Source: an uncultured Methanosarcinales archaeon (GTDB lineage: Archaea > Nanobdellota > Nanobdellia > Woesearchaeales > JACPBV01). Taken from it: a stretch of 64,000 bases of DNA. Under the pieces are notes generated by a model, which was not told the origin of the DNA, did no database searches, and saw only the letters and a list, made by a program, of their open reading frames with translations. Where the stretch lies: positions 6,877 through 70,876 of the forward strand of contig CAZTWQ010000001.1 of the NCBI GenBank assembly GCA_964618315.1, written 5' to 3'. Shown here in pieces: positions 2,579 to 64,000 of the stretch; position 1 is the first letter of the stretch, and each line of letters opens with the position of its first letter. A program made the position numbers and the translations under genes.

Positions 2579-2646
2579 TTTAAGTACCTCCTTAAAAGAA
2601 TGATTTAGGTAATAGGGTATTTTTTAAATAGTTTATTATTAATAAT

Positions 2647-3125: not shown

Positions 3126-3157
3126 TATTGTATTCTGTGTTTGTTTGATAATCCATT

Positions 3158-4046: not shown

Positions 4047-4050
4047 TTTA

Positions 4051-4170
4051 TCATACCTCCTTTTTAGTCTCTTCTAGTTCATCATGACATTCGCATGAAC
4101 TGTCCTTGCACCCACATACCTTACAAACTCGCTTATCGCCAAAATCAAAACATTCTTTTTTTGTTTCCAT
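4051..4170 (-). CDS. small Cys-rich peptide (39 aa)
   Basis: Hand-translated METKKECFDFGDKRVCKVCGCKDSSCECHDELEETKKGV; under 60 aa and not in the ORF track. Confidence 0.3.
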   Translation of the reverse strand: METKKECFDFGDKRVCKVCGCKDSSCECHDELEETKKEV

Positions 4171-4172
4171 TT

Positions 4173-4298
4173 TTATTCTATCAATTCCATGGGCTGACCG
4201 CAACAAACTAATTCTCCACCACCTGCTTTAGTTACAGTAACCTCATTTCCACACATGTTACACTTATATTTTTCACCTTCTTTTTTTACAACTACCAT
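4173..4298 (-). CDS. dsr: desulforedoxin (41 aa)
   Basis: Hand-translated [41 protein letters not shown]. The CxxC...CC spacing and the GQPM motif match desulforedoxin and the Dfx N-domain. Confidence 0.6.
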
Positions 4299-4308
4299 AA
4301 AAAACACC

Positions 4309-4809
4309 TCATTCTATCTTTTTGAATTGTTCTTTGTTTGCACTACATACCGGACAAGTATCTGGTGCTTCGCCTTCTACTGTATGGCCGCAGATTTGAC
4401 AAACATAAATGTCTTTTTCTTCTAAATCTTTTTCTTGTTTTACTGATTCTAGTGCTTTTTGATATAATCCAGCATGAGTTTTCTCAACAGTATTAGCTTT
4501 ACTGAAACTGATCTTTGCTGCCTGGTTCCCCTCTGATTCTGCTTCTTCAATCATTTTTGGATACATCTCAGTAAATTCATGAGTTTCTCCGTCTATCGCT
4601 TCCTGCAGGTTTTCTGCAGTTGTTTTAATCCCATCTAAAACCTTTAAATGGTTATGTGCATGAACTGTTTCTGCATCTGCTGCTGCTCTAAATAATTTAG
4701 CTACTTGTTTAAGGTCTTCTTGGTCTGCTTTTTTTGCAAAAGCAAGGTATTTTCTATTTGCCTGACTTTCTCCTGCGAAAGCTGATTTTAGATTATCTTC
4801 TGTAGTCAT
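4309..4809 (-). CDS. rbr: rubrerythrin
   Basis: N-terminal ferritin-like diiron motifs plus a C-terminal rubredoxin-like CQICGH...CPVCS motif. Confidence 0.85.
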
Positions 4810-5976: not shown

Positions 5977-7116
5977 ATGAATGAAATAGATGATCAAGTC
6001 AGGATAGATATGGGAGAATTAGGGGCAGCAATAGGAGATAGAGTTTTATCTAGTCGTTGGATTGATAATCCAGACGAAGTAGATGGACATGAAGAATTCT
6101 TAGTTGGACTTGAAAGGAAGTTAGATGCTTTAACTGATGATAGGTTAAGGGGTAATATGGGGTGTGCTTCAAATAAATCTAAAAGGCCATATGATAGATT
6201 GAGAGAAAGGAAAGATCACCATTCTAAACATACTAACTATCCTATCCCTAGTCAAAGATTAACAGACCGTGTTCCTGAACATCTTATCCCTTATATAGGG
6301 GATAGAAGGGGTTTGATTGTTCGATTAACTTTAGTAAATAAGAAACAAGTTTATGCTGCTGAAAGAGATATAAATGCTGGCAGAACTGATGTTTTTGATT
6401 ATAAGTTTACAAAGGGAACTAAGAGAGAAAGGCAAGCCCTTTTAGATGTTCAAAAGGAACGGACTTTATCATATGGGGGGGTCGAGAATAAAAGAGTAGT
6501 TCTTACAAGAGAAGATGCACTACGAGCTATAGAGGGAGTTTATCAAGGATACCACAATCATACTGATTTTATATTTCATCCACAGGCAATAAGATATAAG
6601 AAACACTTAAAAGCTGCACAGGTTGCACGAGAATGTGAGACTATTGATGGAATAGCTGATGATATTTCTAAAGGGATTATTTATGATGAAACTAAACTTG
6701 TTATTTTAAGTACTAAAGAAGCAGTATTGCATGCGCTTGAATATGCTAATAATGATGTATACTTTGATACAGATAAAGTTGAATTCGAAAGTGTGTATTG
6801 GACTGAAGGTTATGTTAATGAGTTAACAACCAAAGTTCATGAACAAATGTGTGAACGTGAAGGAATTGTCGCAGACAATCCTAACGATTCAGAAGAAACC
6901 TCAAGACGTGATGAAAAATCAGATGGGATAAGGTCTGAAGGTTATAAGGGAATGCAAACGCTGAGGGATTGTCCTGCAGATTCCAGTAATGGGATGGATC
7001 ACTTAATGGTCCCTGAAATGCAGCCACATAAACAGAGACTTTTAAGAATGAGGGGGGGATATCATATAACTCTGACTGCGATGAATGGGGGGGATTTTAG
7101 TAGATTGAATCGATAA
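5977..7116 (+). CDS. hypothetical protein (ORFan) with atypical composition
   Basis: 379-aa ORF in a region visibly more GC-rich than its neighbours; rich in Arg, Asp and Gly; no recognisable motif. Confidence 0.5.
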   Translation: MNEIDDQVRIDMGELGAAIGDRVLSSRWIDNPDEVDGHEEFLVGLERKLDALTDDRLRGNMGCASNKSKRPYDRLRERKDHHSKHTNYPIPSQRLTDRVPEHLIPYIGDRRGLIVRLTLVNKKQVYAAERDINAGRTDVFDYKFTKGTKRERQALLDVQKERTLSYGGVENKRVVLTREDALRAIEGVYQGYHNHTDFIFHPQAIRYKKHLKAAQVARECETIDGIADDISKGIIYDETKLVILSTKEAVLHALEYANNDVYFDTDKVEFESVYWTEGYVNELTTKVHEQMCEREGIVADNPNDSEETSRRDEKSDGIRSEGYKGMQTLRDCPADSSNGMDHLMVPEMQPHKQRLLRMRGGYHITLTAMNGGDFSRLNR

Positions 7117-7272
7117 GATTCGTTCTTTTTCATTAAAAAAACTTTTTTTCTAGAAATAGTTTAGGTAATGTGTGTTAGTTTCTCCTACCTAGGGAATCCC
7201 CATGAAAACCATAAAGTTTATATATAAGTCTATATATATTATTATATAAATTCATATAAATAGGTGATTTAA

Positions 7273-8039: not shown

Positions 8040-9992
8040 TCATGTTAATATCCCTAAGATAGGGAATACATAATTTGATAATGCCCCGAAGATTAAAGCA
8101 ATTATTATTGTTGCCAGAATTATATATGTTGCTCTTTTCCAACCTACTTCTCTGCCAAGAACAGCTATCGTGGCTACACAAGGTATGTATAATGATGTCA
8201 CTAAGCTGAATACGAAAATCTGTAATGGGGTTAAGAATGATAAGAGGTTACTTGTGCCGCCTATTGCAATCAGCATCTCTAAAGCCATCTCTTTTCTAAA
8301 GATTCCAAATAGTAATGTGATTCCTGCACTTGCTGGCAGGCCTAATAATCCCTGCATGATCGGTTCAAAAGGTTTCATTAAATAAATCAATAGATTGTAT
8401 TCTGTTAGTATGCCGATTAATGCTGCTCCTGCGATTAAAAGTGGGAATGCGATGTAAACAAAATCCTTAAGTCTTATCCATGTTTTTTTTATTATACCTT
8501 TTATAGATGGTAATCTGAAAGGGGGCATCTCTAGTATTAATCCTGTGTGTTCGCCAGGTAATAGTTTTCCTAAGACATATCCTGCTGCAAAGATTACGAT
8601 CAAGTCTATTGCATATATTAATAATGCAAATTGCCAGCCTACATATTTTGCAGTTGCCCCTAATATTACTGCAGTTACTGCAGAACATGGTACTAAACAG
8701 ACCATCACTATTGTTATGAAACGCTCTCTGAATGAAGATAATGTTCTTGTTGAAAGGATTGCAGGTACGTTGCAGCCAAAGCCAAGCATCATAGGTATGG
8801 TTGATTTACCATGTAGTTTTAATCTGTGCATTACCCTATCTAATAAATATGCCATCCTTGTTAAATATCCTGAATCTTCTAAGATACCCATCATTATGTA
8901 GAATACTGTGATATAAGGGATTGCTATTGCTAAGCCTGATTCTATACCAACTATGAAGCCATGTTCAAGAAGAACTTTTATGAAATTAATAGGGATTGTA
9001 CCTATTATAATTCTGAATATAGGTGCAATGTAAGTTTGAAAAGAGTTTATTAAGACTTGTTCAAGGTTGCCTCCAACTGTGAAAAGAGTATAGAACATTA
9101 TAGCTAATATTGATATTAAGATTGGAATTCCTGTTTTTGGTTCTATTGTCAGTCTGCTTAATCTTTCTCTGAGATTTATATTATTCTTTTTTCCTATCTG
9201 TGTTACTTTTTTTGCAATCAAAGATGATTCCCCATGACGATCTTTTGATATGTATGTAGGAATATCATGGAATTTTTTGTATCTTGAGATTGTCTTTTCT
9301 ACCCTTCCTTTTCGCCTTATTTCATGCCATGGAAGGGAACTACCTTCCAGAAGATCCAATATAATTTCCCGTTTGTTTTCTGTTAATACTTTTAGATCCT
9401 GGATAAGGTTTTCTATATGATCATCATATTTTGGTTTAAAGTAATTGAATCTAATCTTTTTGTTGATTACTTCTTCACATTTTTTTGCGAGTTTTTCTAT
9501 GCCTTTTCCGTTTAAGCAGTCTACTTCTACAACTGGAACTCCAAGTGTTTTGCTTAATTCTTTTGAGTTTATTATAATGCCTTTGTCCCTTGCTTCTTCT
9601 ATAAAATTTAGGGCTATAACTACAGGTAATTTATGCTCTATCAATTGTAATGTGAGATATAGGTTTCTTTCAAGATTGTTTGCATCTATCACATTTACTA
9701 TAACTGATGGTTTTCGGCATATGATATAATCTCTTGTCACTTTTTCATCTTCAGAAGACTCGCCAAAAGAATAAGATCCAGGCAGATCTGTTATCTTTAT
9801 ATCCTTAAAATATTTTAGATTTGTCAATCCACTCATGACATCTACTGTAGTTCCTGGATAGTTAGAGACTGTTGCACCAATGCCTGTAAATTGATTAAAG
9901 AGGCAGCTTTTACCAACATTGGGGTTAGCTACTAAAGCTATCTCTTTACTAAATTTTAGTTCATCTAATTTAGGTATAGTATGACATTTCAT
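8040..9992 (-). CDS. feoB: ferrous iron transporter FeoB
   Basis: N-terminal G-domain (GNPNVGKS, DLPG) followed by a polytopic membrane domain; 650 aa. Confidence 0.9.
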   Translation of the reverse strand: MKCHTIPKLDELKFSKEIALVANPNVGKSCLFNQFTGIGATVSNYPGTTVDVMSGLTNLKYFKDIKITDLPGSYSFGESSEDEKVTRDYIICRKPSVIVNVIDANNLERNLYLTLQLIEHKLPVVIALNFIEEARDKGIIINSKELSKTLGVPVVEVDCLNGKGIEKLAKKCEEVINKKIRFNYFKPKYDDHIENLIQDLKVLTENKREIILDLLEGSSLPWHEIRRKGRVEKTISRYKKFHDIPTYISKDRHGESSLIAKKVTQIGKKNNINLRERLSRLTIEPKTGIPILISILAIMFYTLFTVGGNLEQVLINSFQTYIAPIFRIIIGTIPINFIKVLLEHGFIVGIESGLAIAIPYITVFYIMMGILEDSGYLTRMAYLLDRVMHRLKLHGKSTIPMMLGFGCNVPAILSTRTLSSFRERFITIVMVCLVPCSAVTAVILGATAKYVGWQFALLIYAIDLIVIFAAGYVLGKLLPGEHTGLILEMPPFRLPSIKGIIKKTWIRLKDFVYIAFPLLIAGAALIGILTEYNLLIYLMKPFEPIMQGLLGLPASAGITLLFGIFRKEMALEMLIAIGGTSNLLSFLTPLQIFVFSLVTSLYIPCVATIAVLGREVGWKRATYIILATIIIALIFGALSNYVFPILGILT

Positions 9993-10633
9993 TCTTCTTG
10001 TTTTTTGACATATATCTTACTGCAGATCTCGTCACCTAATGCTACTTTAGATCCTTTTATCTGAAGTTCAATAGGGCCTTTTTTTATCTTGTTGAGTATT
10101 TTTATTTTTGTTTCCGGGACTAAACCAAGAGAGTTTATCCTTTCAAGTGTTTGTTTGTTCTTGATATTTGTAAACAATACTGTGGCTTCTTTTCCAACGC
10201 AGATATTTCCAAGAAAGCATGCTTTTTTATCACTCTCAGGGATTTTGTCTCCATGCGGACATGTTTTCGGATTTTTTAGGAGCTTGTCTAGTTTTTCTAC
10301 TGCTTCTTTAGAAACACCATGCTCTAACTTGTCTGCTTCGTTATGGATCTTTTTCTTGTTTATCCCCAATATCTTTAATAAGAAGTTTTCCAGAATTTTA
10401 TGTTTGTATAATATTTTTTCTGCTTCCCCTATGCCTTTTTTTGTCAGGTTGATGCTGCTGTATAGTTTATAATCGATTAGATTGTCTTTAGCAAGCTTTT
10501 TTACCATTTCATTGACACTTGCTTTGGAGATGCTAAGGTGGTTAGCTAACTCAACAGATCTTATAGCCCGATTTTTATCTTTTTGTATCTTGTATATTGC
10601 TTTAAGATAATCTTCTTTACTTATATCTTTCAT
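9989..10633 (-). CDS. DtxR/MntR-family metal-dependent repressor fused to a FeoA domain
   Basis: N-terminal DtxR-type HTH (DYLKAIY...SVELANHLSISKASVNEMVKKL), a metal-binding region and a C-terminal SH3-like FeoA domain; overlaps feoB by 4 nt. Confidence 0.8.
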   Translation of the reverse strand: MKDISKEDYLKAIYKIQKDKNRAIRSVELANHLSISKASVNEMVKKLAKDNLIDYKLYSSINLTKKGIGEAEKILYKHKILENFLLKILGINKKKIHNEADKLEHGVSKEAVEKLDKLLKNPKTCPHGDKIPESDKKACFLGNICVGKEATVLFTNIKNKQTLERINSLGLVPETKIKILNKIKKGPIELQIKGSKVALGDEICSKIYVKKQEE

Positions 10634-13090: not shown

Positions 13091-14137
13091 TTATCCTGAA
13101 TAATCATATTTATTCATTTTAAATCCAGAATTAACCCTATGTCTTATTGTGCTTGGAGGTATATTAATTAGGGGTGATATTTTATAAGGAGTTAATCCTT
13201 TTTCTGTTAATTCTTTTATTCTTATATTCTGATTATTTATCTTTTCAAATCTTTTTTGATAATGATTTAAAGCATTCGAAAGTTTTTTTCTTTTTTCAGG
13301 ATGAGTAAATCCAATTAGTTTACTATATCTAAGGATTGATTTATTGCGGCCTATTGTGATAGTTGGTTCAGAAATCCTAGATTGAATTCCTAAGTCTTCC
13401 AATAGGGATTTGATGAATAGGAGCTCTTCCTCGCACTTTTGTGATCCACTAACAGAAAACATGCCTTTTTTTAGATTGAAATGGACACAACCTTCATCAT
13501 CAAAGAAAGCCTTTAGATATATTTTTTTGTATTCATCATTAGTTATTATGATAGTTTTATCAAAATTAAGAATATCTAAATGCATTAATTTGGAAGAGTA
13601 AATAAGTTGAGTTACTCCTGAACCTACTTTTGATCTTGTTGGTTTTAATCCATAAACAAAGCCCATATCATTTTCAAATTCACTTAATAATTCTTGATTT
13701 TTGTTTATGTAACTAATTACATAAGAGTTATTTTTACTAACATAACCATCAAATATTGAATGTGCATAGATCCTTACTTTTTCTTTGGTTATTTTATCAA
13801 ATCCTTTTTTAAGGGGTTTAGGATAGATAGGAAATTGAACTTTCCCCTTAATGCAATCTTTTATGAAATTTATAGAATGGCCTGTAATTTTTCTAACTTT
13901 TCTTAGAGATTTAACTTTGTTATAAATCTTACATAGATTGTCAACTTTTTGGTTTTTCTTAATTCCTGCTATTTCACTATTAGATTTTATATGAATTCCA
14001 CCCTTGATTAATCTTTTCTTAATGCCTTCTCTTGAAAGTCCAAACTTTTTTGCTAAATTAGTTAATGTTATTCTTTTATCTAAGACATATATTTTTTCAA
14101 TTTCTTTAATTATTTCTTCTGATATTTTTTTTATCAT
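13091..14137 (-). CDS. LAGLIDADG-type homing-endonuclease-like protein with N- and C-terminal HTH domains
   Basis: Two LAGLIDADG-like motifs (HSIFDGYVS and KAFFDDEGCV), an N-terminal HTH (LTNLAKKFGLSREGIKKRL) and a C-terminal HTH (GLTPYKISPLINIPPSTIRHRV). Confidence 0.6.
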   Translation of the reverse strand: MIKKISEEIIKEIEKIYVLDKRITLTNLAKKFGLSREGIKKRLIKGGIHIKSNSEIAGIKKNQKVDNLCKIYNKVKSLRKVRKITGHSINFIKDCIKGKVQFPIYPKPLKKGFDKITKEKVRIYAHSIFDGYVSKNNSYVISYINKNQELLSEFENDMGFVYGLKPTRSKVGSGVTQLIYSSKLMHLDILNFDKTIIITNDEYKKIYLKAFFDDEGCVHFNLKKGMFSVSGSQKCEEELLFIKSLLEDLGIQSRISEPTITIGRNKSILRYSKLIGFTHPEKRKKLSNALNHYQKRFEKINNQNIRIKELTEKGLTPYKISPLINIPPSTIRHRVNSGFKMNKYDYSG

Positions 14138-15227: not shown

Positions 15228-16283
15228 TCAAGGCAATAAGCCAGAGAATAGAATTACTATGAAAATGGTGTATAATATAAGAAATATTATCCCTTCTGTG
15301 CGCCTGATCTTCCAATAACTTTTGATAAACATTAAGAGCAAGATAGTCATAGCTATCATAAATGGGGCTGAATATAGTAAGGTTGATTTGATGATTGTTA
15401 ATGGTGCTATTAATCCTGAAATGCCTATAACTAAGAAGATATTTGCAATGTTAGATCCAATAACATTACCTATAGCTATATTACCATAGCCTTTTCTTGC
15501 AGCTGATATTGAGACGCTTAGTTCTGGCAGGGATGTGCCTAACGCTATAATGCTTATGCCTATAAATGTTTGAGGTATGTTTAATATTTTTGCAAAAAAT
15601 ACTGCTTCTTGTACCAGATATTTTGCACCAAAGACAACTGCTGCTCCTGCAATTGCTGAAATAAGCAAGTCTTTGATCAGGGCTTCTTTGAATAATTGTT
15701 TTATTTCTGTTTTTTGTTTTCTTGTTATTTTGTTTTCTTTATTAGCTTTTGACATCAATCTATCTTTTATCGTAAATATATACTGGAATTTGAAGAAATA
15801 TTTTATGAATTCATTGAAATGATATTTTTCCCCTAATTCTGGTTTTAGTTCAATCAGGAAAAGGATGTAAGCAAAATAAAGTATAATGAAGATTATGGAT
15901 TCTAATTTTGAGATATTGCTGTTCAAAGCAAATACATAGAATAATAATGCTGCAAATAACATGATATATCCATCTCTTTTGAGCATATCTTCTTTTGTTT
16001 TGATTACTGCTATTGTTGCTGCTACCCCTATTATCAATCCTATATTTGCTATATTTGATCCAACTACATTGCCTATGACAATCCCGCTTTGGTTTTTTAG
16101 GGAAGCTATTACTGAAGAAGCTAATTCTGGTATGGATGTGCCTAGTGCGACTAATGTTAAACCTATGACAAACTCTGAGACGCCCAGTTTTTCTGCTATA
16201 GATGCAGCTGATTTTACGAAGAAGTCTGATCCTTTGACTAATAAGATCAAACCTGCTATGAAAATTAATATGTTTATTATCAT
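15228..16283 (-). CDS. Ca2+/Na+ antiporter (CaCA family, YrbG-like)
   Basis: Two alpha-repeat motifs (GTSIPELASSV, GTSLPELSVS; GNVVGSNIANIGL, GNVIGSNIANIFL). Confidence 0.8.
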   Translation of the reverse strand: MIINILIFIAGLILLVKGSDFFVKSAASIAEKLGVSEFVIGLTLVALGTSIPELASSVIASLKNQSGIVIGNVVGSNIANIGLIIGVAATIAVIKTKEDMLKRDGYIMLFAALLFYVFALNSNISKLESIIFIILYFAYILFLIELKPELGEKYHFNEFIKYFFKFQYIFTIKDRLMSKANKENKITRKQKTEIKQLFKEALIKDLLISAIAGAAVVFGAKYLVQEAVFFAKILNIPQTFIGISIIALGTSLPELSVSISAARKGYGNIAIGNVIGSNIANIFLVIGISGLIAPLTIIKSTLLYSAPFMIAMTILLLMFIKSYWKIRRTEGIIFLILYTIFIVILFSGLLP

Positions 16284-17050
16284 GGATTAAACTCCGTTTT
16301 ATTAATTTTTAGTAAAAAATATAATCCAACAAAAAACATCGCTATATTTAGCCATTGACCCATGGTCAATCCTAGGATAAATCCTATGCTTCCGGGGTCT
16401 TTTACAAATTCTATCATGAATCTTATTGATGAGTATAGTAAAACAAATGACCAAAACAGAGTTCCTTTCTTTAATTGTTTTTCTTTTAGGTTCCATAGGA
16501 TTGTAAATATTATTAAGTTTTTTAGGCTCTCATAGATTTGGGATGGGTGTCTGCAACCAGTATAGTTTTTGAAATATACGCACCAGGGCAGGCTTGTGAT
16601 TCTTCCAACTAATTCACTGTTTATGAAGTTGGCTATTCTTCCTAAGAAAAGGCCGAATGCTAATGGGATGACTGTAATATCTGCTAGATCATATAAATCT
16701 ATGTGCTTTTTTTTGCAGAATAAGTAACCTGCTAATACTGCTCCAACCAAACCACCATGGAAGCTTAATCCTCCCTGCCATATTGCTATCATCTTTAATG
16801 GATTTGCTGCATAATAAGCTGGTTCGTAGAAGATTATCTCAAATAATCTTGCTCCCAGAATGGTACCTATAATCAAGTAGAAGATATAATCTGCAATGTC
16901 GTCTTTGGTTAGATTGAGGTTTCTTTTGTTAGCTATATGATATATGATGAAATATGCAATCAGAAAACCTAAAGCGTAGATAATACCATAATATCTAATC
17001 TCTAATGGTCCTATCCTAAATAATGTTGGGTCTATATTATGGTAAAACAT
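16280..17050 (-). CDS. lgt: prolipoprotein diacylglyceryl transferase
   Basis: Lgt signature GGLSFHGGLVGAVLAGY and GRIANFINSE; 256 aa with 7 TM segments. Confidence 0.8.
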   Translation of the reverse strand: MFYHNIDPTLFRIGPLEIRYYGIIYALGFLIAYFIIYHIANKRNLNLTKDDIADYIFYLIIGTILGARLFEIIFYEPAYYAANPLKMIAIWQGGLSFHGGLVGAVLAGYLFCKKKHIDLYDLADITVIPLAFGLFLGRIANFINSELVGRITSLPWCVYFKNYTGCRHPSQIYESLKNLIIFTILWNLKEKQLKKGTLFWSFVLLYSSIRFMIEFVKDPGSIGFILGLTMGQWLNIAMFFVGLYFLLKINKTEFNP

Positions 17051-18166: not shown

Positions 18167-18634
18167 ATGGTAAAAAAAGATACAATAAAAACAATCATTT
18201 CTATTGCTGTTATCATAGTTTTAGCTATTATCATCACCAGTGTAAATAATATGGTTTTTTCTAAATCGTTGGGTGAATTAGAGACTGGGGCCAGGGTTGA
18301 GTCTGGCGTATCTGAAGGTGGAGATGAATTAAATTCAAATGGTGATTATAGTGGATGTTTTAGTCATAGTCAAGATACAGTAGTTTTTGTATATTCTAAT
18401 TCCTGCCCTTATTGTAATCAAATGAAGCCAATAGTAAAAGAGCTTGAAAGTGATGGATATAAGTTTTATTGGGCAGAGGGGTCTGATAAGGAAGCGAGAG
18501 AAATTATAGATGGATGTTTTAGTGATTTAACAGGGGGTTATGTACCTCAGGTGATATGCCCTGCAACTGGAAAAGAACAGACTGGGGCCATGGATAAATC
18601 TAGTTTGAAGAGATTTGCTGATAACTGCAAATAG
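18167..18634 (+). CDS. membrane-anchored thioredoxin-fold thiol-disulfide oxidoreductase
   Basis: N-terminal TM anchor followed by a CPYC active site (VFVYSNSCPYCNQMKP). Confidence 0.6.
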   Translation: MVKKDTIKTIISIAVIIVLAIIITSVNNMVFSKSLGELETGARVESGVSEGGDELNSNGDYSGCFSHSQDTVVFVYSNSCPYCNQMKPIVKELESDGYKFYWAEGSDKEAREIIDGCFSDLTGGYVPQVICPATGKEQTGAMDKSSLKRFADNCK

Positions 18635-23923: not shown

Positions 23924-24364
23924 ATGTTAAGAGGGAGGCATATTTTTGACAAAGGGGCTTCAAAATTACTCATTTCTAGACTTAGAAATATACAAAAAAA
24001 AGAAGGTTACTTATCTGAAGAGAATCTGAAAGGAGTATCAAAAGAAACAAAAATACCTATAACAAGGGTATATGAAGTGGCTACATTCTATTCATTTTTT
24101 AATGTGAAGAAAAAAGGCAAGCATGTAATCAGATTATGTAACTCCCCTGCATGTCTTGTTAATGGTTCTGAGAATATATTAGATATATTTGAGAAATTAT
24201 TAGGTATTAAATTAGGACAGACAACAGAAGATGGGAATTTTACTCTAGAAACCACTTCATGTATAGGGTGCTGTGATGAAAGCCCAGCAGCTTTAGTAGA
24301 TGAAAAAGCACATACTAATCTTAATGAAGATAAAATAAAAGAGATAATCGAAAAATGCAAGTAA
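23924..24364 (+). CDS. NuoE-like [2Fe-2S] subunit of bifurcating [FeFe]-hydrogenase (HydC)
   Basis: NuoE-type Cys pattern CNSPAC...TSCIGCC. Confidence 0.8.
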   Translation: MLRGRHIFDKGASKLLISRLRNIQKKEGYLSEENLKGVSKETKIPITRVYEVATFYSFFNVKKKGKHVIRLCNSPACLVNGSENILDIFEKLLGIKLGQTTEDGNFTLETTSCIGCCDESPAALVDEKAHTNLNEDKIKEIIEKCK

Positions 24365-25458
24365 CTAAAAAAACAGAGTTTAAGGGATTTGAAAAAGCAG
24401 TAAATTTGAAGCCAGAAGAAGTTATACAGGTAGTTAAAAAATCAGGATTAAAAGGGAGGGGGGGAGCAAACTTCTCAACAGGTCTAAAATGGGAATTTAC
24501 AAGAAAAAGTCCAAATCCTACTAAAGTTGTTATATGCAATGCTGATGAAGGGGAGCCAGGCACTTTTAAGGATAAATTAATACTTACAGAGAACCCATCT
24601 ATTGTAATTGAAGGGATAGCGATTGCAGCTTATGCAATTGGAGCTAAATTTGCTTATATCTATTTAAGAGCAGAATACGAGTATTTGAAGGAAAATCTTG
24701 AAAAAGCAATAGAAGAATATAAGGCTGAGTTGGACAAGATAGAATTAAATATTGATATTGTGATGGGTGCTGGAGCTTATATTTGTGGTGATGAAACTGC
24801 AATAATGAATTCTATACAAGAGCTTAGAGGAGAGCCACATGCAAAACCACCATATCCAGTTGAATCAGGGTTATGTAATTATCCAACTACAATAAATAAT
24901 GTTGCTACATTGGCAAATGTTCCCTTGATAATGTTAGATGAATGGGATGATCTAAGATTATATTCATTATCAGGTAATTTAGATAGTCCAGGGGTTTATG
25001 AGATGCCTTTAGGAATAACTACTAAAGAACTTATTGAGAAAGGAACCCCTAAAGAAGAGATAAAAGCATTATTCTTTGGATGTGCAGGTGGTTGTTTACC
25101 TTATGATCCTGAAATGAAACTGGATGTTGAATCAGTAAATGAAAAAGGTGCAATGCTTGGGAGTTGCACTGTTATTGCAATTGGAAAAAGCCAAAGCATA
25201 CCTAAAATCTGTAAGAATATAGCTGAATTTTTTGTTCATGAAAGTTGTGGTAAATGTACTCCTTGTAGGGAAGGTAATTTTAGAGTTTTAGAGATAATCA
25301 ATAAGATTGTTGAAAATAAAGCAGATGAAGATGATTTGAATGCATTGGAGGATCTTGCTATTTTTATCAACAAAACTTCATTATGTGGATTAGGACAAGC
25401 ATCTAACACACACATAAAAACAGCACTAAAATATTTTAGAGAGGAATTTACAAAATGA
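24355..25458 (+). CDS. NuoF-like NADH-binding FMN/[4Fe-4S] subunit (HydB, minimal form)
   Basis: GRGGANFSTGLKW, FMN and NADH motifs and ESCGKCTPCREG; lacks the N-terminal thioredoxin-like and C-terminal ferredoxin domains present in the second copy. Confidence 0.8.
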   Translation: MQVTKKTEFKGFEKAVNLKPEEVIQVVKKSGLKGRGGANFSTGLKWEFTRKSPNPTKVVICNADEGEPGTFKDKLILTENPSIVIEGIAIAAYAIGAKFAYIYLRAEYEYLKENLEKAIEEYKAELDKIELNIDIVMGAGAYICGDETAIMNSIQELRGEPHAKPPYPVESGLCNYPTTINNVATLANVPLIMLDEWDDLRLYSLSGNLDSPGVYEMPLGITTKELIEKGTPKEEIKALFFGCAGGCLPYDPEMKLDVESVNEKGAMLGSCTVIAIGKSQSIPKICKNIAEFFVHESCGKCTPCREGNFRVLEIINKIVENKADEDDLNALEDLAIFINKTSLCGLGQASNTHIKTALKYFREEFTK

Positions 25459-27152
25459 GCCAGATTATGATAAATGGGGTTCAATTTGAGGCAAAAGAAG
25501 GGGAGACTATCCTTGAATTATGCAAAAGAAACAATGTAGAGATACCTCACCTTTGTTACCATCCTGATCTAGAAGCTCAAGCAAGATGTAGGATATGTGT
25601 TGTGAGTGTAAATGGTAAATTAGTCACTTCATGTAATACAAAAGTAATTGATGGTATGAACATAATAACAGAGAATGATGAGATAATAAAAGCAAGGAAA
25701 TTGAATATGGAATTGCTGCTTGCTAACCATGATGCTAAGTTAGAGGATAATGAGTTAGGTAAAGTTGCAAAAAAATTAGGTGTAGATAAAAGCAGGTTTG
25801 ATAAAATTCAAGATAAAACAGTTGATGATAGCAGTGCAGGGATACATCATGATAACAATAAATGCATATTGTGTGGGAGATGCGTACAAAAATGCCAAAC
25901 TATTCAAAGTGTTTTTGCAATAGGATTTGAAAACAGAGGACACTATACTGAAGTAAACCCTTACTTTAATCACGGATTAGGTGATGTTTCATGTGTTCTT
26001 TGCGGTCAATGTACAAATGTCTGCCCTTCTCAGGCATTGATGGAAAAAGATTATACTAAAGAAGTTACAGATGCTATAAATGATTCTGATAAGGTAGTTA
26101 TTGTACAGACAGCACCTTCAATAAGAGGTACACTAGGGGAGACTCAAGGTATGGAGCCAGGAAGTTTAGTAACTGGAAAGATGGTCGCTGCTTTAAGAAA
26201 ATTAGGTTTTGATAAAGTACTAGATACAAACTTTACAGCTGATTTAACAATAGTTGAGGAAGGAAATGAACTTATTCAAAGGGTGAAAAATAAGGGGGTA
26301 CTCCCACAGATAACTTCATGCAGCCCTGGTTGGGTAAAATTTATAGAGCATTTTTATCCTGAACTCCTACCTAATTTAAGTTCATGTAAGAGTCCTCAGC
26401 AAATGTTTGGGACTTTGTTAAAGACATATTATGCTAAAAAGAATAATATTGATCCTTCTAAGATAGTTTCGGTTTCAATAATGCCTTGTATAGCTAAGAA
26501 ATACGAGATGAACAGGCCGGAGATGAAAGATTCTGGTTTTAAAGATGTTGATTATTCCTTAACTACGAGGGAGCTTGGAAGGATGATAAAAGACGCAGGG
26601 ATTGATTTTGCTAATCTAGAAGATGATAAATTCGATCCTATAATGGGTGAGTCAACTGGTGCTGCAGCAATATTTGGAGCTACTGGTGGTGTAATGGAAG
26701 CCGCTTTGCGTACAGCTGTAGATATTTTAGAAGGAAAAGATCTTCAAGAGATAGAATATACTGGAGTTAGAGGATTAAAAGGAATAAAAGAAGCAACAGT
26801 TAAGGTTGCTGGTATTGATGTTAGTGTAGCTGTTGCTCATGGCCTAGGAAATGCAAGAGCACTTATGGAAATGGTCAAGAAATATCCTTCAAAATATCAT
26901 TTTATAGAAATAATGGCATGTCCTGGTGGATGTGTTGGTGGAGGGGGTCAACCAGCCCCTACTAATTCTGAAGTTGTAAAGAAAAGATCAGAAGCACTTT
27001 ATGCGGAAGATAAGGGCTTAACTTATAGAAAATCACATAAGAACCCTGAAATAATCCAGCTTTATGAAGAGTTCTTAAAAGAGTATGGTTCGCATAAAGC
27101 ACATGAATTATTGCATACAAAATACACAGCAATGAATGAATTAGGGGATTAG
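25455..27152 (+). CDS. hydA: [FeFe]-hydrogenase catalytic subunit HydA (copy 1, non-canonical L1 motif)
   Basis: N-terminal 2Fe-2S plus two [4Fe-4S] motifs. H-cluster motif L2 MPCIAKKYE and L3 EIMACPGGCVGGGGQP are present, but L1 reads TSCSPGW instead of the canonical TSCCPxW. Confidence 0.85.
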   Translation: MSQIMINGVQFEAKEGETILELCKRNNVEIPHLCYHPDLEAQARCRICVVSVNGKLVTSCNTKVIDGMNIITENDEIIKARKLNMELLLANHDAKLEDNELGKVAKKLGVDKSRFDKIQDKTVDDSSAGIHHDNNKCILCGRCVQKCQTIQSVFAIGFENRGHYTEVNPYFNHGLGDVSCVLCGQCTNVCPSQALMEKDYTKEVTDAINDSDKVVIVQTAPSIRGTLGETQGMEPGSLVTGKMVAALRKLGFDKVLDTNFTADLTIVEEGNELIQRVKNKGVLPQITSCSPGWVKFIEHFYPELLPNLSSCKSPQQMFGTLLKTYYAKKNNIDPSKIVSVSIMPCIAKKYEMNRPEMKDSGFKDVDYSLTTRELGRMIKDAGIDFANLEDDKFDPIMGESTGAAAIFGATGGVMEAALRTAVDILEGKDLQEIEYTGVRGLKGIKEATVKVAGIDVSVAVAHGLGNARALMEMVKKYPSKYHFIEIMACPGGCVGGGGQPAPTNSEVVKKRSEALYAEDKGLTYRKSHKNPEIIQLYEEFLKEYGSHKAHELLHTKYTAMNELGD

Positions 27153-27296
27153 TGGTAGTTAATTTCTATTTTTATTTTTGTGGTAATTAAACAATATATC
27201 AGTTTCTAATAAGTTATGTGGAGTATAAAATAATAAATTAAATAATGTGGTAATTAAACTAAAATAAAAAGCTTTTTATAAGAGTGGTAATTAAAC
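27152..27296. promoter_or_regulatory. four direct copies of a 13-bp motif GTGGTAATTAAAC (the first copy is degenerate) between the two hydrogenase modules
   Basis: Copies at 27152 (GTGGTAGTTAATT), 27180, 27247 and 27284, ending 7 nt before the ATG of the second hydC. Confidence 0.35.
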
Positions 27297-27302
27297 TATT
27301 TT

Positions 27303-27908
27303 ATGCCTTATCTTAAACAAGTAACAATAAACAATAATGAATACTATTACCTATTCCATACAGTAAGAGTAGGGGATAAATTCAAAAAATTAAGCAAGTA
27401 TGTAGGTAAGAATAAGCCATCGGATAATGAATTAGGTAGATTAAAAAAAGAATTCCTTAAAGAAATAAATAAAGAGCCTGTTGAATTTGAAGAAGAAGTT
27501 CCAAAAGTTAATGTTGTTGAAGAATTGCAAGATCTGCAAGATAAAGAGGGGTATCTATCTAAAGAAAGTATGATCAAAATTTCAAAAGAGAAAGATATAC
27601 CTGGTGTTAAGCTCTATGGTGTTGCAACTTTTTATTCTCAATTTAGACTAAAACAAAAAGCAAAGAATACAATAAGTGTTTGTAGGGGAACTGCATGTCA
27701 TGTTAAGGGTTCTGATTCTTTATTAGAATATCTGGAAGAAATTCTAGAAATAAAATCTGGGCAGACAACAAAAGATGGAAAAATAAACCTGGAGTGTGTT
27801 AATTGTATAGGTGCTTGTGCAAAAGCTCCTGCGATTATGGTTAATGATGAAGTGTATGGTGAATTAACCAAAGAAAAAGTGAAAAAAATAATTGAAGGAC
27901 TAAAATGA
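27303..27908 (+). CDS. NuoE-like [2Fe-2S] subunit (HydC copy 2) with an N-terminal extension
   Basis: CRGTACHVKGS...CVNCIGACAKAP; the roughly 70-aa N-terminal extension is of uncertain reality. Confidence 0.75.
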   Translation: MPYLKQVTINNNEYYYLFHTVRVGDKFKKLSKYVGKNKPSDNELGRLKKEFLKEINKEPVEFEEEVPKVNVVEELQDLQDKEGYLSKESMIKISKEKDIPGVKLYGVATFYSQFRLKQKAKNTISVCRGTACHVKGSDSLLEYLEEILEIKSGQTTKDGKINLECVNCIGACAKAPAIMVNDEVYGELTKEKVKKIIEGLK

Positions 27909-36920: not shown

Positions 36921-38126
36921 ATGATTCCGTTTACTAAGAAGTATGTCCCTAAGTCTTTAAAGGATATAAAGGGGCATGATAAATCTGCGAGAGAATTAAA
37001 GGAAATAATTACTAATTTTAAGAAGCAGAAGAAGAAAGCTACATGGGTATATGGACCATCAGGCAGTGGAAAGACTTCTATCGCTTATGCTATGGCTAAT
37101 GAGTTTAATTATGAGATTATAGAAGTAAATGCTTCTGATTCAAGGAACAAAGATGAGATAAACCAGAAAGTTGGGGGGGCTATTTTACAGCATTCTTTGT
37201 TTTCTAAAGGGAAGATAATACTTGTGGATGAGATAGATGGATTGTCTGGGATGAAGGATAGGGGTGGGATGCAGGCTTTGATCAAGCTGATCGAGAAAAG
37301 CCAATTTCCAATAATATTAACTGCAACAAACCCTTGGGATTATAAGTTTAATTCTTTAAGAAAGAAATGTAACTTGATAGAGTTAGAACCCATAGGCTAT
37401 CTGGATATAACCTCTGTTTTGAAGGATATATGCTCTAAAGAGAATATCAAATATGAGCTAGATGTACTTAAGTCATTAGCAAGGAGGGCTGGTGGAGATT
37501 GCAGAGCTGCTGTCAATGATCTGCAGACCTTAACTGAATTGACAAAAGAACTGACTAAAGAGAGCCTAGATGAGTTAGAGCAGAGAAGTCAAGAAGAATC
37601 TATGCCAAATGCTTTGCTTCGTGTGTTTAAGACTACAGATCCTAAAGTAGCAATAGGTGCTTTTGACAATATTAAGGAAGATCTAAGTCAGCAATTATTA
37701 TGGATAGATGAGAATCTACCTCATGAGTATAGCAAGCCAGAAGATCTGGCAAGAGCTTATGATAAGATAAGCAAGGCAGATGTTTTTAATCGACGTATCA
37801 GAAGGTGGCAGCATTGGAGATTCTTAGTCTATATCAATGCGTTAATCACTGCAGGGGTGGCTGTTTCTAAAGATGAAAAATACAAGAAATTTGTGAAGTA
37901 TAAGCCAACTGGAAGAATATTGAAGTTATGGTGGGCTAAACAGAAAAGCATGAAGAAAAAAGCTATTGCTGCTAAGATTGCAGAAAAGACACATAGTTCT
38001 ACAAAGGATATTATCAAAGATATTGAATATTTTAAGACTATATTTAAGAAGAACAAAGAGATGGGTAACAATATAGCTGAATATGCTGATCTTTCTAAAG
38101 AAGAAGTGATATGGCTAAAGAAATGA
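36921..38126 (+). CDS. rfcL: replication factor C large subunit (clamp loader)
   Basis: AAA+ Walker A GPSGSGKTS, a DEID Walker B, and an RFC-box-like N-terminus (KYVPKSLKDIKGHDK). Confidence 0.7.
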   Translation: MIPFTKKYVPKSLKDIKGHDKSARELKEIITNFKKQKKKATWVYGPSGSGKTSIAYAMANEFNYEIIEVNASDSRNKDEINQKVGGAILQHSLFSKGKIILVDEIDGLSGMKDRGGMQALIKLIEKSQFPIILTATNPWDYKFNSLRKKCNLIELEPIGYLDITSVLKDICSKENIKYELDVLKSLARRAGGDCRAAVNDLQTLTELTKELTKESLDELEQRSQEESMPNALLRVFKTTDPKVAIGAFDNIKEDLSQQLLWIDENLPHEYSKPEDLARAYDKISKADVFNRRIRRWQHWRFLVYINALITAGVAVSKDEKYKKFVKYKPTGRILKLWWAKQKSMKKKAIAAKIAEKTHSSTKDIIKDIEYFKTIFKKNKEMGNNIAEYADLSKEEVIWLKK

Positions 38127-48650: not shown

Positions 48651-49466
48651 TTACTCAGGCAACAAATGTTCTGGAATGTTTACATCAGAATCTTGTACCC
48701 TATTTAATGATGTTTCTGTGAAGAAATATGATTTTTCTTCTTGTTCTATGCTATAGATAAAACCAAAATTAGAGTCTATAACTACCTGGCCTATATTAGT
48801 ATTAAGCTTAAAGCTTTGCTTACCAAAATAAGATCCTTCATCTATCTTCTCTGCCCCTTCTATCTCCTTAATCCAATCTAAGGGGGTTTTTATATAAGCA
48901 GTGTCATAATCCAAGTCTTCTATCTTTCCAGTAAATTTCCCACAACTAGAATAGACTATGCAGTATTTTTCTGCTGTTGCCTTCTCAGTATCTATATAGA
49001 TAACATATTCATCTGATATATAATCTAATTTTATTTTATTATCTTTAACATAAATCTCATATTGCTTGCCAGATGGTGATTTGTATCTATATGAATAGCT
49101 ATTTATCTTTCTTTCTGCTACATCATTAAGCTGCTCTATCAATGATTCTTCTATTGAGGCGTCTTCACTAAGTTCTTCTGCTGTATCCCCTGATGTTTCT
49201 TCAGTTATATCTTCAACCAATATCTCTGGTTGTTCTTCTTCAGGTTCTACTATTGGCTCTTCTGCCAGTTCATTGCATTCTCCGTTTTCACATCCGTTTT
49301 CACAATCAGTTATTTGTTTAAATGTACAATCAGTGGTTCTATATGCTAAAGTATTTTCAGTTGGACAAATCCATTTTTCAGTACAAGATTTTGTAATTTC
49401 TGACTCTGATTTGCAGCCAATAAATAACATAATAATTGCTAAGATTATTAGATATTTGTATTTCAT
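48651..49466 (-). CDS. lipoprotein (bacterial-type lipobox LFIGC), function unknown
   Basis: Signal peptide MKYKYLIILAIIMLFIGC with a lipobox Cys; the C-terminal domain is paralogous to 49542..50285. Confidence 0.55.
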   Translation of the reverse strand: MKYKYLIILAIIMLFIGCKSESEITKSCTEKWICPTENTLAYRTTDCTFKQITDCENGCENGECNELAEEPIVEPEEEQPEILVEDITEETSGDTAEELSEDASIEESLIEQLNDVAERKINSYSYRYKSPSGKQYEIYVKDNKIKLDYISDEYVIYIDTEKATAEKYCIVYSSCGKFTGKIEDLDYDTAYIKTPLDWIKEIEGAEKIDEGSYFGKQSFKLNTNIGQVVIDSNFGFIYSIEQEEKSYFFTETSLNRVQDSDVNIPEHLLPE

Positions 49467-49541
49467 TGTATCACCATTTAAGACTTAAGGAGAATTCTAT
49501 TTAAAGTTTTTGGATTGAGGATTAAAAAATAATATAAAAAA

Positions 49542-50285
49542 TTAAATAATTGAGTTAAGGGGTATTACAGCTTCTTCTTTTACTGAATTAAAAGATACGT
49601 CTGTGAATTCGCATGTTTTTTCACTGCCCTCCACTTTATATATGAATCCATAGTAAGATTCTAATATTACTTTTCCAACATTTGTCTGTAAATATAAAGA
49701 GTCTCTGGATTCTACTACCCTTTCACCTATTTTTTCGGCTTCTGTTATTTGATTGGCCCAATCTATTGGTGTGTTAATATGTTCCTCAGTATAATCAAGA
49801 TCTTTTATCTTTCCGAATGTGCCGCTACATCTCGAACGTGGCTCACAGTAACCTTGTGCAGTCTTTTTATCTGTATCCAGATAAATAGTGTTATAAAATT
49901 TACCATCACCAACATTTATTATCGCTGGAAGGATTATCTTTGTATTATTCCCTTTAACATGGGTCTTATAGAGAAGATCACTACCATATTCCCTGTAATT
50001 ATAAGAATAACTTTCTAATTTTGTCTCTGATTTAGCTAAAATTTCATTTATTTCATCAGGTATATCTTCTGATGATTGTTTAGGCTTGGGTTTTGGGGAT
50101 TGTATCTCTGCAGATGGTTCAGGGGTTGAATCTGGTGATTGCACTCCATCAGAGGGTTCAGGTGTTGGCTCTTGAATTGTTGTTGGTTTATCTATTCTTG
50201 TTATTGTTACTTCCTGTTTTGCACAACCTATCAATAAGATCAGAACTAATAATATGGAATATGTGTATTTTGTCATAAAGACCAC
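49542..50285 (-). CDS. lipoprotein (lipobox LLIGC), paralog of 48651..49466
   Basis: Signal peptide ...LVLILLIGCAKQ; shares a C-terminal motif series with its neighbour (YxIYxDTxKxTAxxYC...GKIxDLDY...TPxDW). Confidence 0.55.
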   Translation of the reverse strand: MVFMTKYTYSILLVLILLIGCAKQEVTITRIDKPTTIQEPTPEPSDGVQSPDSTPEPSAEIQSPKPKPKQSSEDIPDEINEILAKSETKLESYSYNYREYGSDLLYKTHVKGNNTKIILPAIINVGDGKFYNTIYLDTDKKTAQGYCEPRSRCSGTFGKIKDLDYTEEHINTPIDWANQITEAEKIGERVVESRDSLYLQTNVGKVILESYYGFIYKVEGSEKTCEFTDVSFNSVKEEAVIPLNSII

Positions 50286-53101: not shown

Positions 53102-53106
53102 TAAAA

Positions 53107-55186: not shown

Positions 55187-55227
55187 GTGTTGAGGTCAAT
55201 ACTTAGTAAATGAGGTGTTTTAATTAA

Positions 55228-62427: not shown

Positions 62428-64000
62428 ATGACAAGAATAGCTATAATACAGAAAGAGAAATGCAACCCTGTTGGATGCGGAGGGTATCTTTGTATTAGGG
62501 TGTGCCCTATAAATAAGATGGGGGAAGAGTGTATTGTTGAAAGTGATGACAATAAACCTAAGATAAATGAAGAACTTTGCAATGGGTGTGGTATATGCCC
62601 TCATCGTTGTCCATTTGAAGCTATTTCAATCATCAATTTACCTGAAGAACTTGATAAACCACCTATACATCAATATGGGGAGAATGGGTTTCATCTTTAT
62701 TCGCTGCCAACACCGATATTTGGTAAGGTTGTGGGGATTGTAGGTGTTAATGGTATTGGGAAGAGTACTGCGATCAAGATATTAGCTGGTGTTCTTGAAC
62801 CAAATCTAGGTAAATTAGATAATACGAAGACAGATTATGATGAAGTAGTCAAATATTTCAAAGGTACGGAAGCGCAGGTATTTTTTGAGAAGGTGAAGGA
62901 TAAAAAGATTAAGATTAGCTATAAGCCTCAGCATGTTGATTTGATTCCTAAACAGACTAAAGGCAAGGTTAAAGATCTATTGAAGAAAGTTGATGAGAAA
63001 AAGCAGCTTGAGAAGATAGCTAAAGAATTAGGGATAGAAAAGATACTTGACAATGATATTTCTAAGATTTCTGGTGGTGAGCTACAGAGAGTTGCGATAG
63101 CTGCTACTGTCTTGAAAAAAGCAAATTTGTATATTTTTGATGAACCTTCGTCTTACCTAGATATCAAACAAAGATTGAAGATAGCTAAATTTATCAAATC
63201 ATTGGCTGATGAAGATACATCTGTTGTTGTTATTGAGCATGATCTGATTGTGATGGATTATATGGCTGATCTGATCCATATAATGTATGGTAAGGAAGGT
63301 TGTTATGGTATTGTTTCACAACTAAAGGCTGCAAAAGCAGGTATAAATTCTTATCTTGAGGGTTATATACGAGAAGATAATATAAGGTTTAGAGACCATA
63401 AGATTAAGTTTGAAGTTAGACCACCAGAAAAGAAATGCAAAGAGAATATATTAACAGAGTGGCCTGCTATGGAAAAGACATTAGGGAAGTTTAAGTTAAA
63501 AGCTAGTGAAGGAAGTGTAAATAAGCATGAGATAGCAGGAATAATAGGGGAGAATGGAATAGGTAAAACATCTTTTGTTAAACTATTGGCTGGTGTTATT
63601 AAGCCAGATAAGGGAGATGTTAATAGCAAGATTGTAGTTTCTTACAAACCGCAGAAGTTAGAAGCAGACTCTGATGAGGTGGTCATGATTGTCTTGCAGG
63701 AAGCTATCAAGAAACATACTAAAGATATTATCAATCCATTGGGGTTGAAGGGTATGTTTATGAAGAAACTTTCTGAGCTTTCTGGTGGTGAGTTGCAGCG
63801 GGTTTCAATTGCACTTGCTTTATCTAAGAAATGTGATTTATGTTTACTGGATGAACCTAGTGCTTATCTGGATGTTGAACAAAGGTTGATTGTTTCTAAG
63901 ATAATCAAGAATGTTGCAGAAGCTTCTGGAATCTCTATCTTAGTTGTAGATCATGATCTTTTGTTTATTGATTATTTATCCGATAGGTTGATTGTTTTTG
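62428..64000 (+). CDS. abcE1: ABCE1 / RNase L inhibitor-type ATPase (4Fe-4S plus twin ABC), 3'-partial at the window edge
   Basis: N-terminal 2x[4Fe-4S] motifs (CNPVGCGGYLCIRVCP, CNGCGICPHRCP) followed by two ABC domains (GVNGIGKST, LSGGELQRV). Not in the ORF track because no stop codon falls within the window. Confidence 0.85.
   Translation, partial: MTRIAIIQKEKCNPVGCGGYLCIRVCPINKMGEECIVESDDNKPKINEELCNGCGICPHRCPFEAISIINLPEELDKPPIHQYGENGFHLYSLPTPIFGKVVGIVGVNGIGKSTAIKILAGVLEPNLGKLDNTKTDYDEVVKYFKGTEAQVFFEKVKDKKIKISYKPQHVDLIPKQTKGKVKDLLKKVDEKKQLEKIAKELGIEKILDNDISKISGGELQRVAIAATVLKKANLYIFDEPSSYLDIKQRLKIAKFIKSLADEDTSVVVIEHDLIVMDYMADLIHIMYGKEGCYGIVSQLKAAKAGINSYLEGYIREDNIRFRDHKIKFEVRPPEKKCKENILTEWPAMEKTLGKFKLKASEGSVNKHEIAGIIGENGIGKTSFVKLLAGVIKPDKGDVNSKIVVSYKPQKLEADSDEVVMIVLQEAIKKHTKDIINPLGLKGMFMKKLSELSGGELQRVSIALALSKKCDLCLLDEPSAYLDVEQRLIVSKIIKNVAEASGISILVVDHDLLFIDYLSDRLIVF

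Follow-up and report, generated by a model that had tools for sequence, protein, structure and literature searches.

The closest described counterpart of the system considered here is Lgt, the prolipoprotein diacylglyceryl transferase of bacteria, as known from the Escherichia coli structures 5AZB and 5AZC. Mutagenesis and structural work on the E. coli enzyme established Y26, H103, R143, E151 and the G142/G145 region as essential, and R239, E243, R246 and Y235 form a catalytic hydrogen-bond network (PMC4728403). Two motifs define the family, H103GGL and G142-R143-L-G-N146-F-I-N-G-E151 (2026 mBio; PMC13251419, PMC4728403), and the first of these contains the essential His and is the proposed peptide-binding site (PMC4728403, PMC13251419). 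Lgt is stated to be absent from archaea in FEMS Rev 2018, Nat Commun 2025 and mBio 2026. The second of these papers, which reports the discovery of AliA/AliB, starts from the premise that there is no archaeal Lgt, and the claim of absence in the third rests on a search of RefSeq, which excludes most metagenome-assembled genomes (MAGs). Our literature search returned no report linking Lgt with Woesearchaeota, and two DPANN comparative-genomics papers were silent on Lgt. Here we describe an lgt gene in a stretch of 64,000 nucleotides (the window) of contig CAZTWQ010000001.1.

An earlier note on this DNA had reported a convincing Lgt in an archaeal context, and its remark that archaea generally lack the enzyme agrees with the published statements above. 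On the sequence evidence, we consider it likely that the gene encodes a genuine, active, lipoprotein-lipidating Lgt that is resident in a DPANN (Woesearchaeota) genome. The data establish what the enzyme is, that its catalytic residues are intact, that it resides in an archaeon and is conserved across the clade, that the lipobox Cys is conserved, and that lipobox genes are linked to lgt in operons. Feature positions are collected in Table 1.

Every sequence criterion applied places the window protein in the Lgt family. Its residues 8-247 align to positions 1-239 of the 240-position Pfam LGT profile (PF01790; E 4e-74, 249.3 bits against a gathering threshold of 24.9), the NCBIfam equivalog TIGR00544 was passed with 213 bits (cut-off 118.9), and E. 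coli Lgt (5AZB/5AZC) aligns over residues 3-246 with an E value of 6e-39. The strings GGLSFHGGLVGAV and GRIANFIN, which the earlier note had quoted, are both present in the translation. The HGGL motif reads SFH98GGL, and the family signature runs G137-R138-I-A-N141-F-I-N-S-E146-L-V-G149, as compared with G142-R143-L-G-N146-F-I-N-G-E151-L-W-G154 in E. coli. Similarly, Y21, Y206, R210 and E214 in the central cavity and head network correspond to E. coli Y26, Y235, R239 and E243. The equivalent of R246 is Lys (K217), a substitution known from several bacterial Lgt proteins. With the catalytic set kept, the description as a convincing Lgt holds.

Conservation was assessed in a set of 127 clade members that share 49-76% identity with the window protein, plus one paralogue at 37%. 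The His of the HGGL motif is kept in 125/127 members; in the signature, R and G are invariant (127/127 each) and N and E are each kept in 126/127. Overall, the equivalents of Y26, H103, R143, N146, E151, G154, H196, Y235 and R239 are 98-100% conserved. Less strict are the equivalent of E243, at 91%, and that of R246, which is R or K. This pattern is that of a working enzyme and points to purifying selection on the archaeal clade. The extracytoplasmic head region further contains a pair of cysteines, C157/C166 (window 16553-16582), that reads C...C in 77/127 members and A...F in 49; one member has a different pair without Cys, and a lone Cys does not occur. Because both cysteines co-vary perfectly, they probably form a disulfide. 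A link between this pair and the thiol-redox genes near lgt (see below) was considered and dropped, as there was no correlation across loci.

The host is a small DPANN archaeon of symbiotic type, a member of the Woesearchaeota (the NCBI label is also 'Nanoarchaeota'). Archaeal markers stand on both flanks of lgt within one contig. In addition to the replication factor C (RFC) and ABCE1/RLI genes listed in Table 1, the window contains a valyl-tRNA synthetase (ValRS) of the archaeal PRK13208 type (1068 bits, cut-off 738), a dimeric glycyl-tRNA synthetase (GlyRS) and a FlaI/TadA-like secretion ATPase; beyond the window end, the same contig carries topoisomerase VI A and B and a PNO1-like KH protein. 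The archaeal context reported for lgt is therefore borne out by RFC-L, ValRS, ABCE1 and the FlaI-like ATPase within the window and by topoisomerase VI beyond it. In the assembly collection, 45 blocks and at least 24 contigs carry the exact Lgt protein, and the gene order was identical at all four places displayed (L001-L004, from separate ENA and JGI assemblies). As independent assemblies from ENA and JGI agree in synteny, the joining of lgt to archaeal genes is not a product of chimeric assembly. The GC content of lgt equals that of the window (0.333 in both), and its GC at third codon positions has a z value of 1.3 relative to the window genes.

The 120 best clusters at 90% identity are 55-76% identical to the window Lgt, and all of those that carry an organism name are Woesearchaeota or 'Nanoarchaeota'. 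Among the matches listed, the best is at 76%, and the exact self-sequence is absent though present in the collection. When GTDB was scanned with each species represented by a single genome, six lgt loci emerged, all labelled archaeal and two of them as Methanosarcinales (see below). The more distant representatives that share 44-46% identity belong to Woesearchaeota, as judged from their names (P0172, P0176) or their gene context. Indeed, lgt is accompanied by S10, EF-1alpha, Rpb6 and exosome subunits in locus L013, by eRF1 in L015, by L21e, L15e, L31e, S19e, Rpb4 and Spt5 in L016, and by Sec61beta, NAC and RNase P p30 in L018. At 41% identity, P0205 has bacterial surroundings (penicillin-binding protein transpeptidase, sigma-70, MerR), and two representatives at ~40% are Pasteurella and Denitrobacterium. 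Organism names were obtained for 6/30 clusters and comprise three Woesearchaeota and two bacterial genera, plus bacterial MAG members. In a neighbour-joining tree of 19 Lgt sequences of established origin, 15 archaeal sequences split from four bacterial ones in 100/100 bootstraps; the median identity was 48% within the archaeal set and 37% between domains.

The archaeal loci that host lgt span 31-49% GC. Because the GC of the window gene equals that of its surroundings and the clade is diverse down to ~44% identity, the data argue for an old, clade-wide Woesearchaeal gene and against sporadic contamination; a recent horizontal transfer into the window genome was rejected on the same grounds of composition and clade depth. 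The earlier suggestion that lgt was horizontally acquired thus stands insofar as a bacterial-type Lgt occurs in an archaeal genome, but as an ancient and clade-wide acquisition, not a recent event here. An ancestor of the archaeal clade would have taken up a bacterial lgt long ago, the transfer running from bacteria to archaea, and the gene would since have been inherited and maintained by selection.

Three of the related loci are of interest in their own right. L005 (CAYUUH010000241.1) and L006 (CAYUUQ010000003.1) are labelled 'uncultured Methanosarcinales archaeon' and carry a Woesearchaeal-type lgt (57-61% identity) together with a DPANN-specific upstream family; these bins are probably mislabelled or contaminated. 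The 'Nanoarchaeota' MAG of L008 has two lgt paralogues, at 3834-4625 and 9375-10139. The second is 37% identical to the window Lgt (PF01790, 192 bits), with a Cys-rich 286-aa membrane protein before it and a 69-aa lipobox open reading frame (ORF) after it.

Candidate substrates are encoded in the window itself. Two paralogous lipobox proteins had been reported, with lipoboxes LFIGC and LLIGC, and both were found on the (-) strand at the positions given, 36% identical to each other (alignment A1). A 100%-identical 244-aa database entry begins at the ATG at 50276 (MTKYTYSILLVLILLIGC), so this ATG is likely the true start of lipoprotein 2. None of the 24 database homologues of lipoprotein 2 has a Pfam domain. 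Aligned over 25 sequences, the family has an invariant lipobox Cys at +1 (25/25) and the consensus L-[LVA]-[IVA]-[GS]-C; loss of this Cys in orthologues, which had been named as grounds for refutation, was not seen. The lipobox is followed by a low-complexity Pro/Glu/Thr tether and then by a well-conserved domain with invariant C144 and C150. The AlphaFold (AF2) model of this domain in lipoprotein 2 has a predicted local distance difference test score (pLDDT) above 90. Foldseek matched it to LolA, LolB, LprG, LppX and RseB with a probability of 1.0 and E values of 1e-5 to 1e-3; the template modelling scores for the LolA/LprG/LppX/RseB matches were 0.36-0.53, normalised by target. As a match at the level of the fold, the domain is thus predicted to be a lipid-/lipoprotein-binding half-barrel. 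LprG and LppX are themselves lipoproteins, and archaea have no outer membrane as a destination for lipoprotein sorting. The related genome L019 has a single lipoprotein copy at the syntenic position, so the pair in the window is a local tandem duplication.

Two neighbours of the lipoprotein genes were also considered. The gene for a small M50 membrane peptidase lies directly downstream, an adjacency kept in L019 (8790-9341). In bacteria, site-2 proteases break down liberated signal peptides; a role of this peptidase in the lipoprotein system is speculative. Some 3 kb from the LolA-fold lipoproteins, positions 53082-57653 encode an ATP-binding cassette (ABC) set of the MacB type, consisting of an ATPase, a CARDB-domain protein and two MacB_PCD+FtsX permeases in a LolD/C/E-like layout, and this proximity recurs in L019 (47-5299). 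Its identification as LolCDE was rejected: the scores were 47-74 bits for lolCE, against 362, and 242 for LolD, against 308, and MacB was the best permease match. By its sequence scores, the set is a generic MacB-type transporter.

Lipobox proteins were sought with a rule in the style of PROSITE PS51257 (n-region K/R, hydrophobic h-region, [LVI][ASTVI][GAS]C, Cys at residues 15-35). This search, proposed in the earlier note, found no further lipobox proteins in the window and did find them beside lgt in L006, L014 and L008. In L006 the gene that overlaps the lgt stop codon encodes a lipobox protein (LLSSC) with a CPHC thioredoxin-type motif. Similarly, the gene overlapping the lgt stop codon in L014 encodes a lipobox protein (VIAGC), and four more lipobox genes, including those for DUF411 and rhodanese proteins, lie within ~7 kb. 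In L008 the small ORF after the second lgt paralogue has the lipobox FLAGC, and a multicopper oxidase has a lipobox as well. Across the window and nine further archaeal lgt loci, 12/249 ORFs fit the rule. Varying the residue at +1 showed enrichment of Cys alone, at 3.4x background, with every other residue at 0.9x or less.

We infer the catalytic activity, acceptor specificity and transferred lipid of the archaeal enzyme as follows. Lgt would lie in the cytoplasmic membrane, its active site on the outer side, and the pocket formed by the conserved R143/R239/Y26 would hold a phosphatidylglycerol-type lipid. From this lipid the enzyme would pass the glyceryl-lipid moiety to Cys+1 of lipobox proteins exported by Sec, forming a thioether that anchors these proteins on the outer face of the single archaeal membrane. 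Among its substrates would be the LolA/LprG-fold tandem pair at 48651-50285 and, in the genomes of relatives, the small proteins, multicopper oxidase, Trx-motif, DUF411 and rhodanese proteins encoded beside lgt.

The earlier note had further proposed a diacylglyceryl pathway. A Lgt system acting on the lipobox Cys agrees with the data; the lipid moved may be diacylglyceryl or could instead be archaeol. Archaeal membranes normally consist of sn-glycerol-1-phosphate ether lipids, the mirror image of the known Lgt donor. Between an ester diacylglycerol and an archaeol donor, our judgement is split roughly evenly. In the first case, the archaeal Lgt would use ester-linked diacyl-phosphatidylglycerol (diacyl-PG), taken up from bacteria that serve as hosts or live nearby, or else synthesised by enzymes of bacterial type, and would produce a true diacylglyceryl-Cys anchor. 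We regard this as a serious possibility that stops short of being probable. The PG-binding and catalytic residues are identical to those of bacterial Lgt, including Y26, whose hydroxyl hydrogen-bonds the sn-2 ester oxygen in 5AZC (PMC4728403). Some Woesearchaeota have bacterial fatty-acid and glycerol 3-phosphate (G3P) dehydrogenase genes, and murein-lytic proteins suggest bacterial hosts for some of them (Castelle 2021). Finally, a PlsY-family gene adjoins lgt in L013; the encoded protein is short and scores 87 bits against an equivalog cut-off of 137, and this gene was downgraded to a weak hint of ester lipids. Against this donor, the window contains no lipid-synthesis genes, and the literature holds no lipid measurements for Woesearchaeota.

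In the second case, which we put forward tentatively, Lgt would be adapted to archaeal lipids and would transfer diphytanylglyceryl (archaeol) from archaetidylglycerol, giving the same product as AliA/AliB in Haloferax by means of a different enzyme. The host is an archaeon, and haloarchaeal lipoproteins bear thioether-linked archaeol (PMC12462473). Woesearchaeota, moreover, lack lipid synthesis genes, being reported without geranylgeranylglyceryl phosphate (GGGP) and digeranylgeranylglyceryl phosphate (DGGGP) synthases, and it has been proposed that they recycle lipids from outside the cell, those of co-occurring archaea. However, a donor with inverted glycerol stereochemistry and ether bonds should call for a remodelled pocket, and no pocket residue differs from bacteria.

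Several observations weigh against an active, lipoprotein-lipidating Lgt of bacterial descent. Of 74 non-overlapping window ORFs (greedy set), the lipobox rule picks out 2, the two lipoproteins alone. The Lgt pocket has no obvious adaptation to archaeal lipids. The phylogenetic check that had been suggested gave the archaeal/bacterial split described above; with four bacterial taxa, the tree neither names the donor nor proves a single transfer, and with so few bacterial sequences the monophyly of the archaeal clade and a single transfer are not rigorously established. In addition, Lgt almost always works with Lsp in bacteria, and LspA (PF01252) was not found by Pfam in the ~74 window ORFs and ~18 kb of flanks (~82 kb of this genome), nor in L013-L016, L018 and L019 (precomputed Pfam) or L005-L010 (motif, phmmer and Pfam); the same Pfam scans of the window, flanks and other lgt loci gave no Lnt/CN_hydrolase. 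Together with ~190 kb from the other loci, this search covers <10% of any genome, which is too small for exclusion, and the lspA search proposed in the earlier note is accordingly little informative. Lnt is optional even among bacteria. As to the functioning pathway proposed there, the canonical Lgt, the conserved lipobox Cys and the lgt-linked lipobox genes speak for it, whereas neither LspA nor Lnt turned up in the sequence searched (<10% of any genome).

It is improbable, in our view, that the Lgt homologue has been recruited for some other reaction (with a different acceptor, or in lipid remodelling) and that an enzyme of the AliA type, encoded at another site in the genome, lipidates the lipobox proteins. 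DPANN are reported to have AliA (arCOG02177) 'with some gaps', and the lack of an Lsp in the searched sequence (<10% of any genome) would be in keeping with such a role; the conservation of the H103GGL peptide-binding motif with the full catalytic set, and the presence of lipobox genes as operon neighbours of lgt in several archaeal loci, argue against it. Least credible by far is an artefact, be it a bacterial contig, a chimeric assembly or a bin contaminant joining a bacterial lgt to archaeal DNA: Lgt is otherwise considered a bacterial hallmark, but the archaeal markers on both sides of the gene in a single contig, the topoisomerase VI flank, the identical synteny in ENA and JGI assemblies with the exact protein in 45 collection blocks, at least ten further divergent lgt loci amid archaeal core genes and the unremarkable composition led us to reject it, and with it the bacterial contig that had been named as a refutation.

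The active Lgt that we favour may not work alone. The stop of the gene upstream overlaps the lgt start, and its product, an orphan polytopic membrane protein, is a candidate clade-specific Lgt partner, translationally coupled to the enzyme. According to a hidden Markov model of the family, it lies directly upstream of lgt in 6/12 distinct archaeal loci (the window, L005, L006, L008, L013 and L014). The orphan protein diverges faster than Lgt (~26% vs 50-60% identity across the same loci); invariant are D34, S89, K92, N120, N258 and R259, the last two within a C-terminal N258-R259-x-x-F-Y motif. Its AF2 model is all-helical with a pLDDT of 75. No Pfam match was obtained even at E<=5 over 13 family members, the protein has no PDB sequence match and no fold match (best Foldseek hit CysZ, E=3), and hhalign scored the family as unrelated to Lgt (probability 0.5%).

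On the other side of lgt, the exchanger gene overlaps the lgt stop and is probably co-transcribed with it. This arrangement is the same in L001-L004, and the exchanger is absent beside lgt in L005-L018. In L013, a Woesearchaeal genome, the short PlsY-family gene adjoining lgt (G3P acyltransferase, PF02660) occupies 6774-7232. Thiol-redox genes recur near lgt. In the window, the gene for the CPYC thioredoxin-like protein is divergent from the partner-lgt operon; the corresponding neighbours are a DsbA/Thioredoxin_4 protein in L008 and DsbA, DsbD_TM, Thioredoxin_3 and DoxX in L014, and a thioredoxin (L016) or a GILT thiol reductase (L018) stands directly upstream of lgt. It is plausible that these genes would keep exported Cys in the redox state needed for lipidation and disulfide formation. 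A broader scheme, which we rate as rather unlikely, is a Woesearchaeal hybrid lipoprotein system composed of the bacterial-origin Lgt, the orphan partner and extracytoplasmic thiol-redox proteins, in which lipid-binding LolA/LprG-fold proteins, anchored at the cell surface by a long tether, would help a lipid-auxotrophic symbiont to extract host lipids. Within such a system, the orphan partner may stand in for Lsp or adapt Lgt to scavenged lipids.

Table 1. Features of the window discussed in the text.
Feature	Position (nt)	Strand	Remarks
Na+/Ca2+ exchanger family gene	15228..16283	(-)	PF01699, 231 bits; 4-nt overlap with the lgt stop
lgt, prolipoprotein diacylglyceryl transferase homologue	16280..17050	(-)	256 aa, ATG start
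Orphan polytopic membrane protein, 272 aa	17037..17855	(-)	Stop overlaps lgt start by 14 nt
Signal-anchored thioredoxin-like protein, CPYC motif	18167..18634	(+)	Thioredoxin_2, E 3e-4 (below cut-off); weak match to TrbB thiol-disulfide isomerase
Replication factor C large subunit, archaeal	36921..38126	(+)	NF003229, 373.5 bits (cut-off 280)
Small M50 (site-2-protease family) membrane peptidase, 188 aa	48051..48617	(-)	PF02163, 42.8 bits
Lipoprotein 1, tandem paralogue	48651..49466	(-)	Lipobox LFIGC, Cys18; MKYKYLIILAIIMLFIGC; extra Cys-rich insert after lipobox
Lipoprotein 2	49542..50285	(-)	Lipobox LLIGC, Cys18 counted from ATG 50276; Pro/Glu/Thr-rich tether, then LolA/LprG-like domain
ABCE1/RLI (archaeal/eukaryotic), truncated by window end	62428..63996	(+)	Fer4_RLI and two ABC_tran domains

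The window contains several further features. Positions 23924-31338 hold two tandem bacterial-type HydABC-like sets (thioredoxin-like 2Fe-2S protein, NuoF-like flavoprotein and [FeFe]-hydrogenase large subunit), a putative duplicated electron-bifurcating hydrogenase in an archaeon. The gene for tRNA-Cys(GCA), at 32237-32310, is directly upstream of the cysteinyl-tRNA synthetase gene (32349-33746) and is overlapped by the 3' end of a LAGLIDADG-type ORF (31540-32316). The latter is one of three free-standing LAGLIDADG homing-endonuclease-like ORFs, the others being at 13091-14137 and 40980-41765, that lie outside any obvious intron or intein. An oxidative-stress cluster at 2060-4809 comprises three rubrerythrin-family genes and a desulfoferrodoxin gene, and a thioredoxin-reductase-like flavoprotein is encoded at 63-1001.

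NCBI and JGI pipelines already annotate these MAG proteins as Lgt. The archaeal Lgt is thus in the databases and contradicted by the literature: a known enzyme in an unexpected domain of life, with new associated anatomy. Because the genes are already annotated, what the finding brings is a correction and extension of the literature, not a new enzyme. New here are the orphan membrane protein coupled to lgt in 6/12 loci and the recurring thiol-redox genes beside lgt. The existence of a large conserved Woesearchaeal Lgt clade implies that the premise of no archaeal Lgt is too strong. That premise motivated the search for separate machinery (AliA/AliB) and underpins the 'unique to bacteria' argument for the pathway as an antibiotic target. 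The archaeal Lgt may also account for some of the 'gaps' in the distribution of AliA among lipoprotein-rich DPANN. More broadly, it is a natural experiment in how, or whether, a PG-dependent bacterial enzyme works across the lipid divide. With ester diacyl-PG as the donor, these archaea would bear lipid anchors of bacterial type and thereby breach the 'lipid divide' in nature; with archaetidylglycerol, a canonical Lgt pocket would be taking a mirror-image ether lipid.

Compared with bacterial Lgt (5AZB/5AZC), the archaeal enzyme has the same full-length family match, the HGGL and GRxxNFINxE motifs and the Y26/Y235/R239/E243 set, and lipobox-Cys substrates are encoded nearby. It differs from the E. 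coli enzyme in its archaeal host, in length (256 aa against 291 aa), in the Lys at the position of R246 and in the C157/C166 pair, which is present in ~60% of the archaeal clade and has no counterpart in E. coli. Unlike bacterial lgt, the archaeal gene is translationally coupled to an orphan membrane protein, and no Lsp or Lnt was detected nearby. The window lipoproteins share with LolA, LolB, LprG, LppX and RseB a predicted helix packed on a long curved antiparallel sheet, and are set apart from the LolA/LprG group by 6-14% identity, the lack of a Pfam match, the long Pro/Glu/Thr tether and C144 and C150. Finally, the system resembles AliA/AliB (arCOG02177/02178) of Haloferax volcanii in the presumed thioether lipidation of an archaeal lipobox Cys and in that lipoprotein genes are sometimes neighbours.

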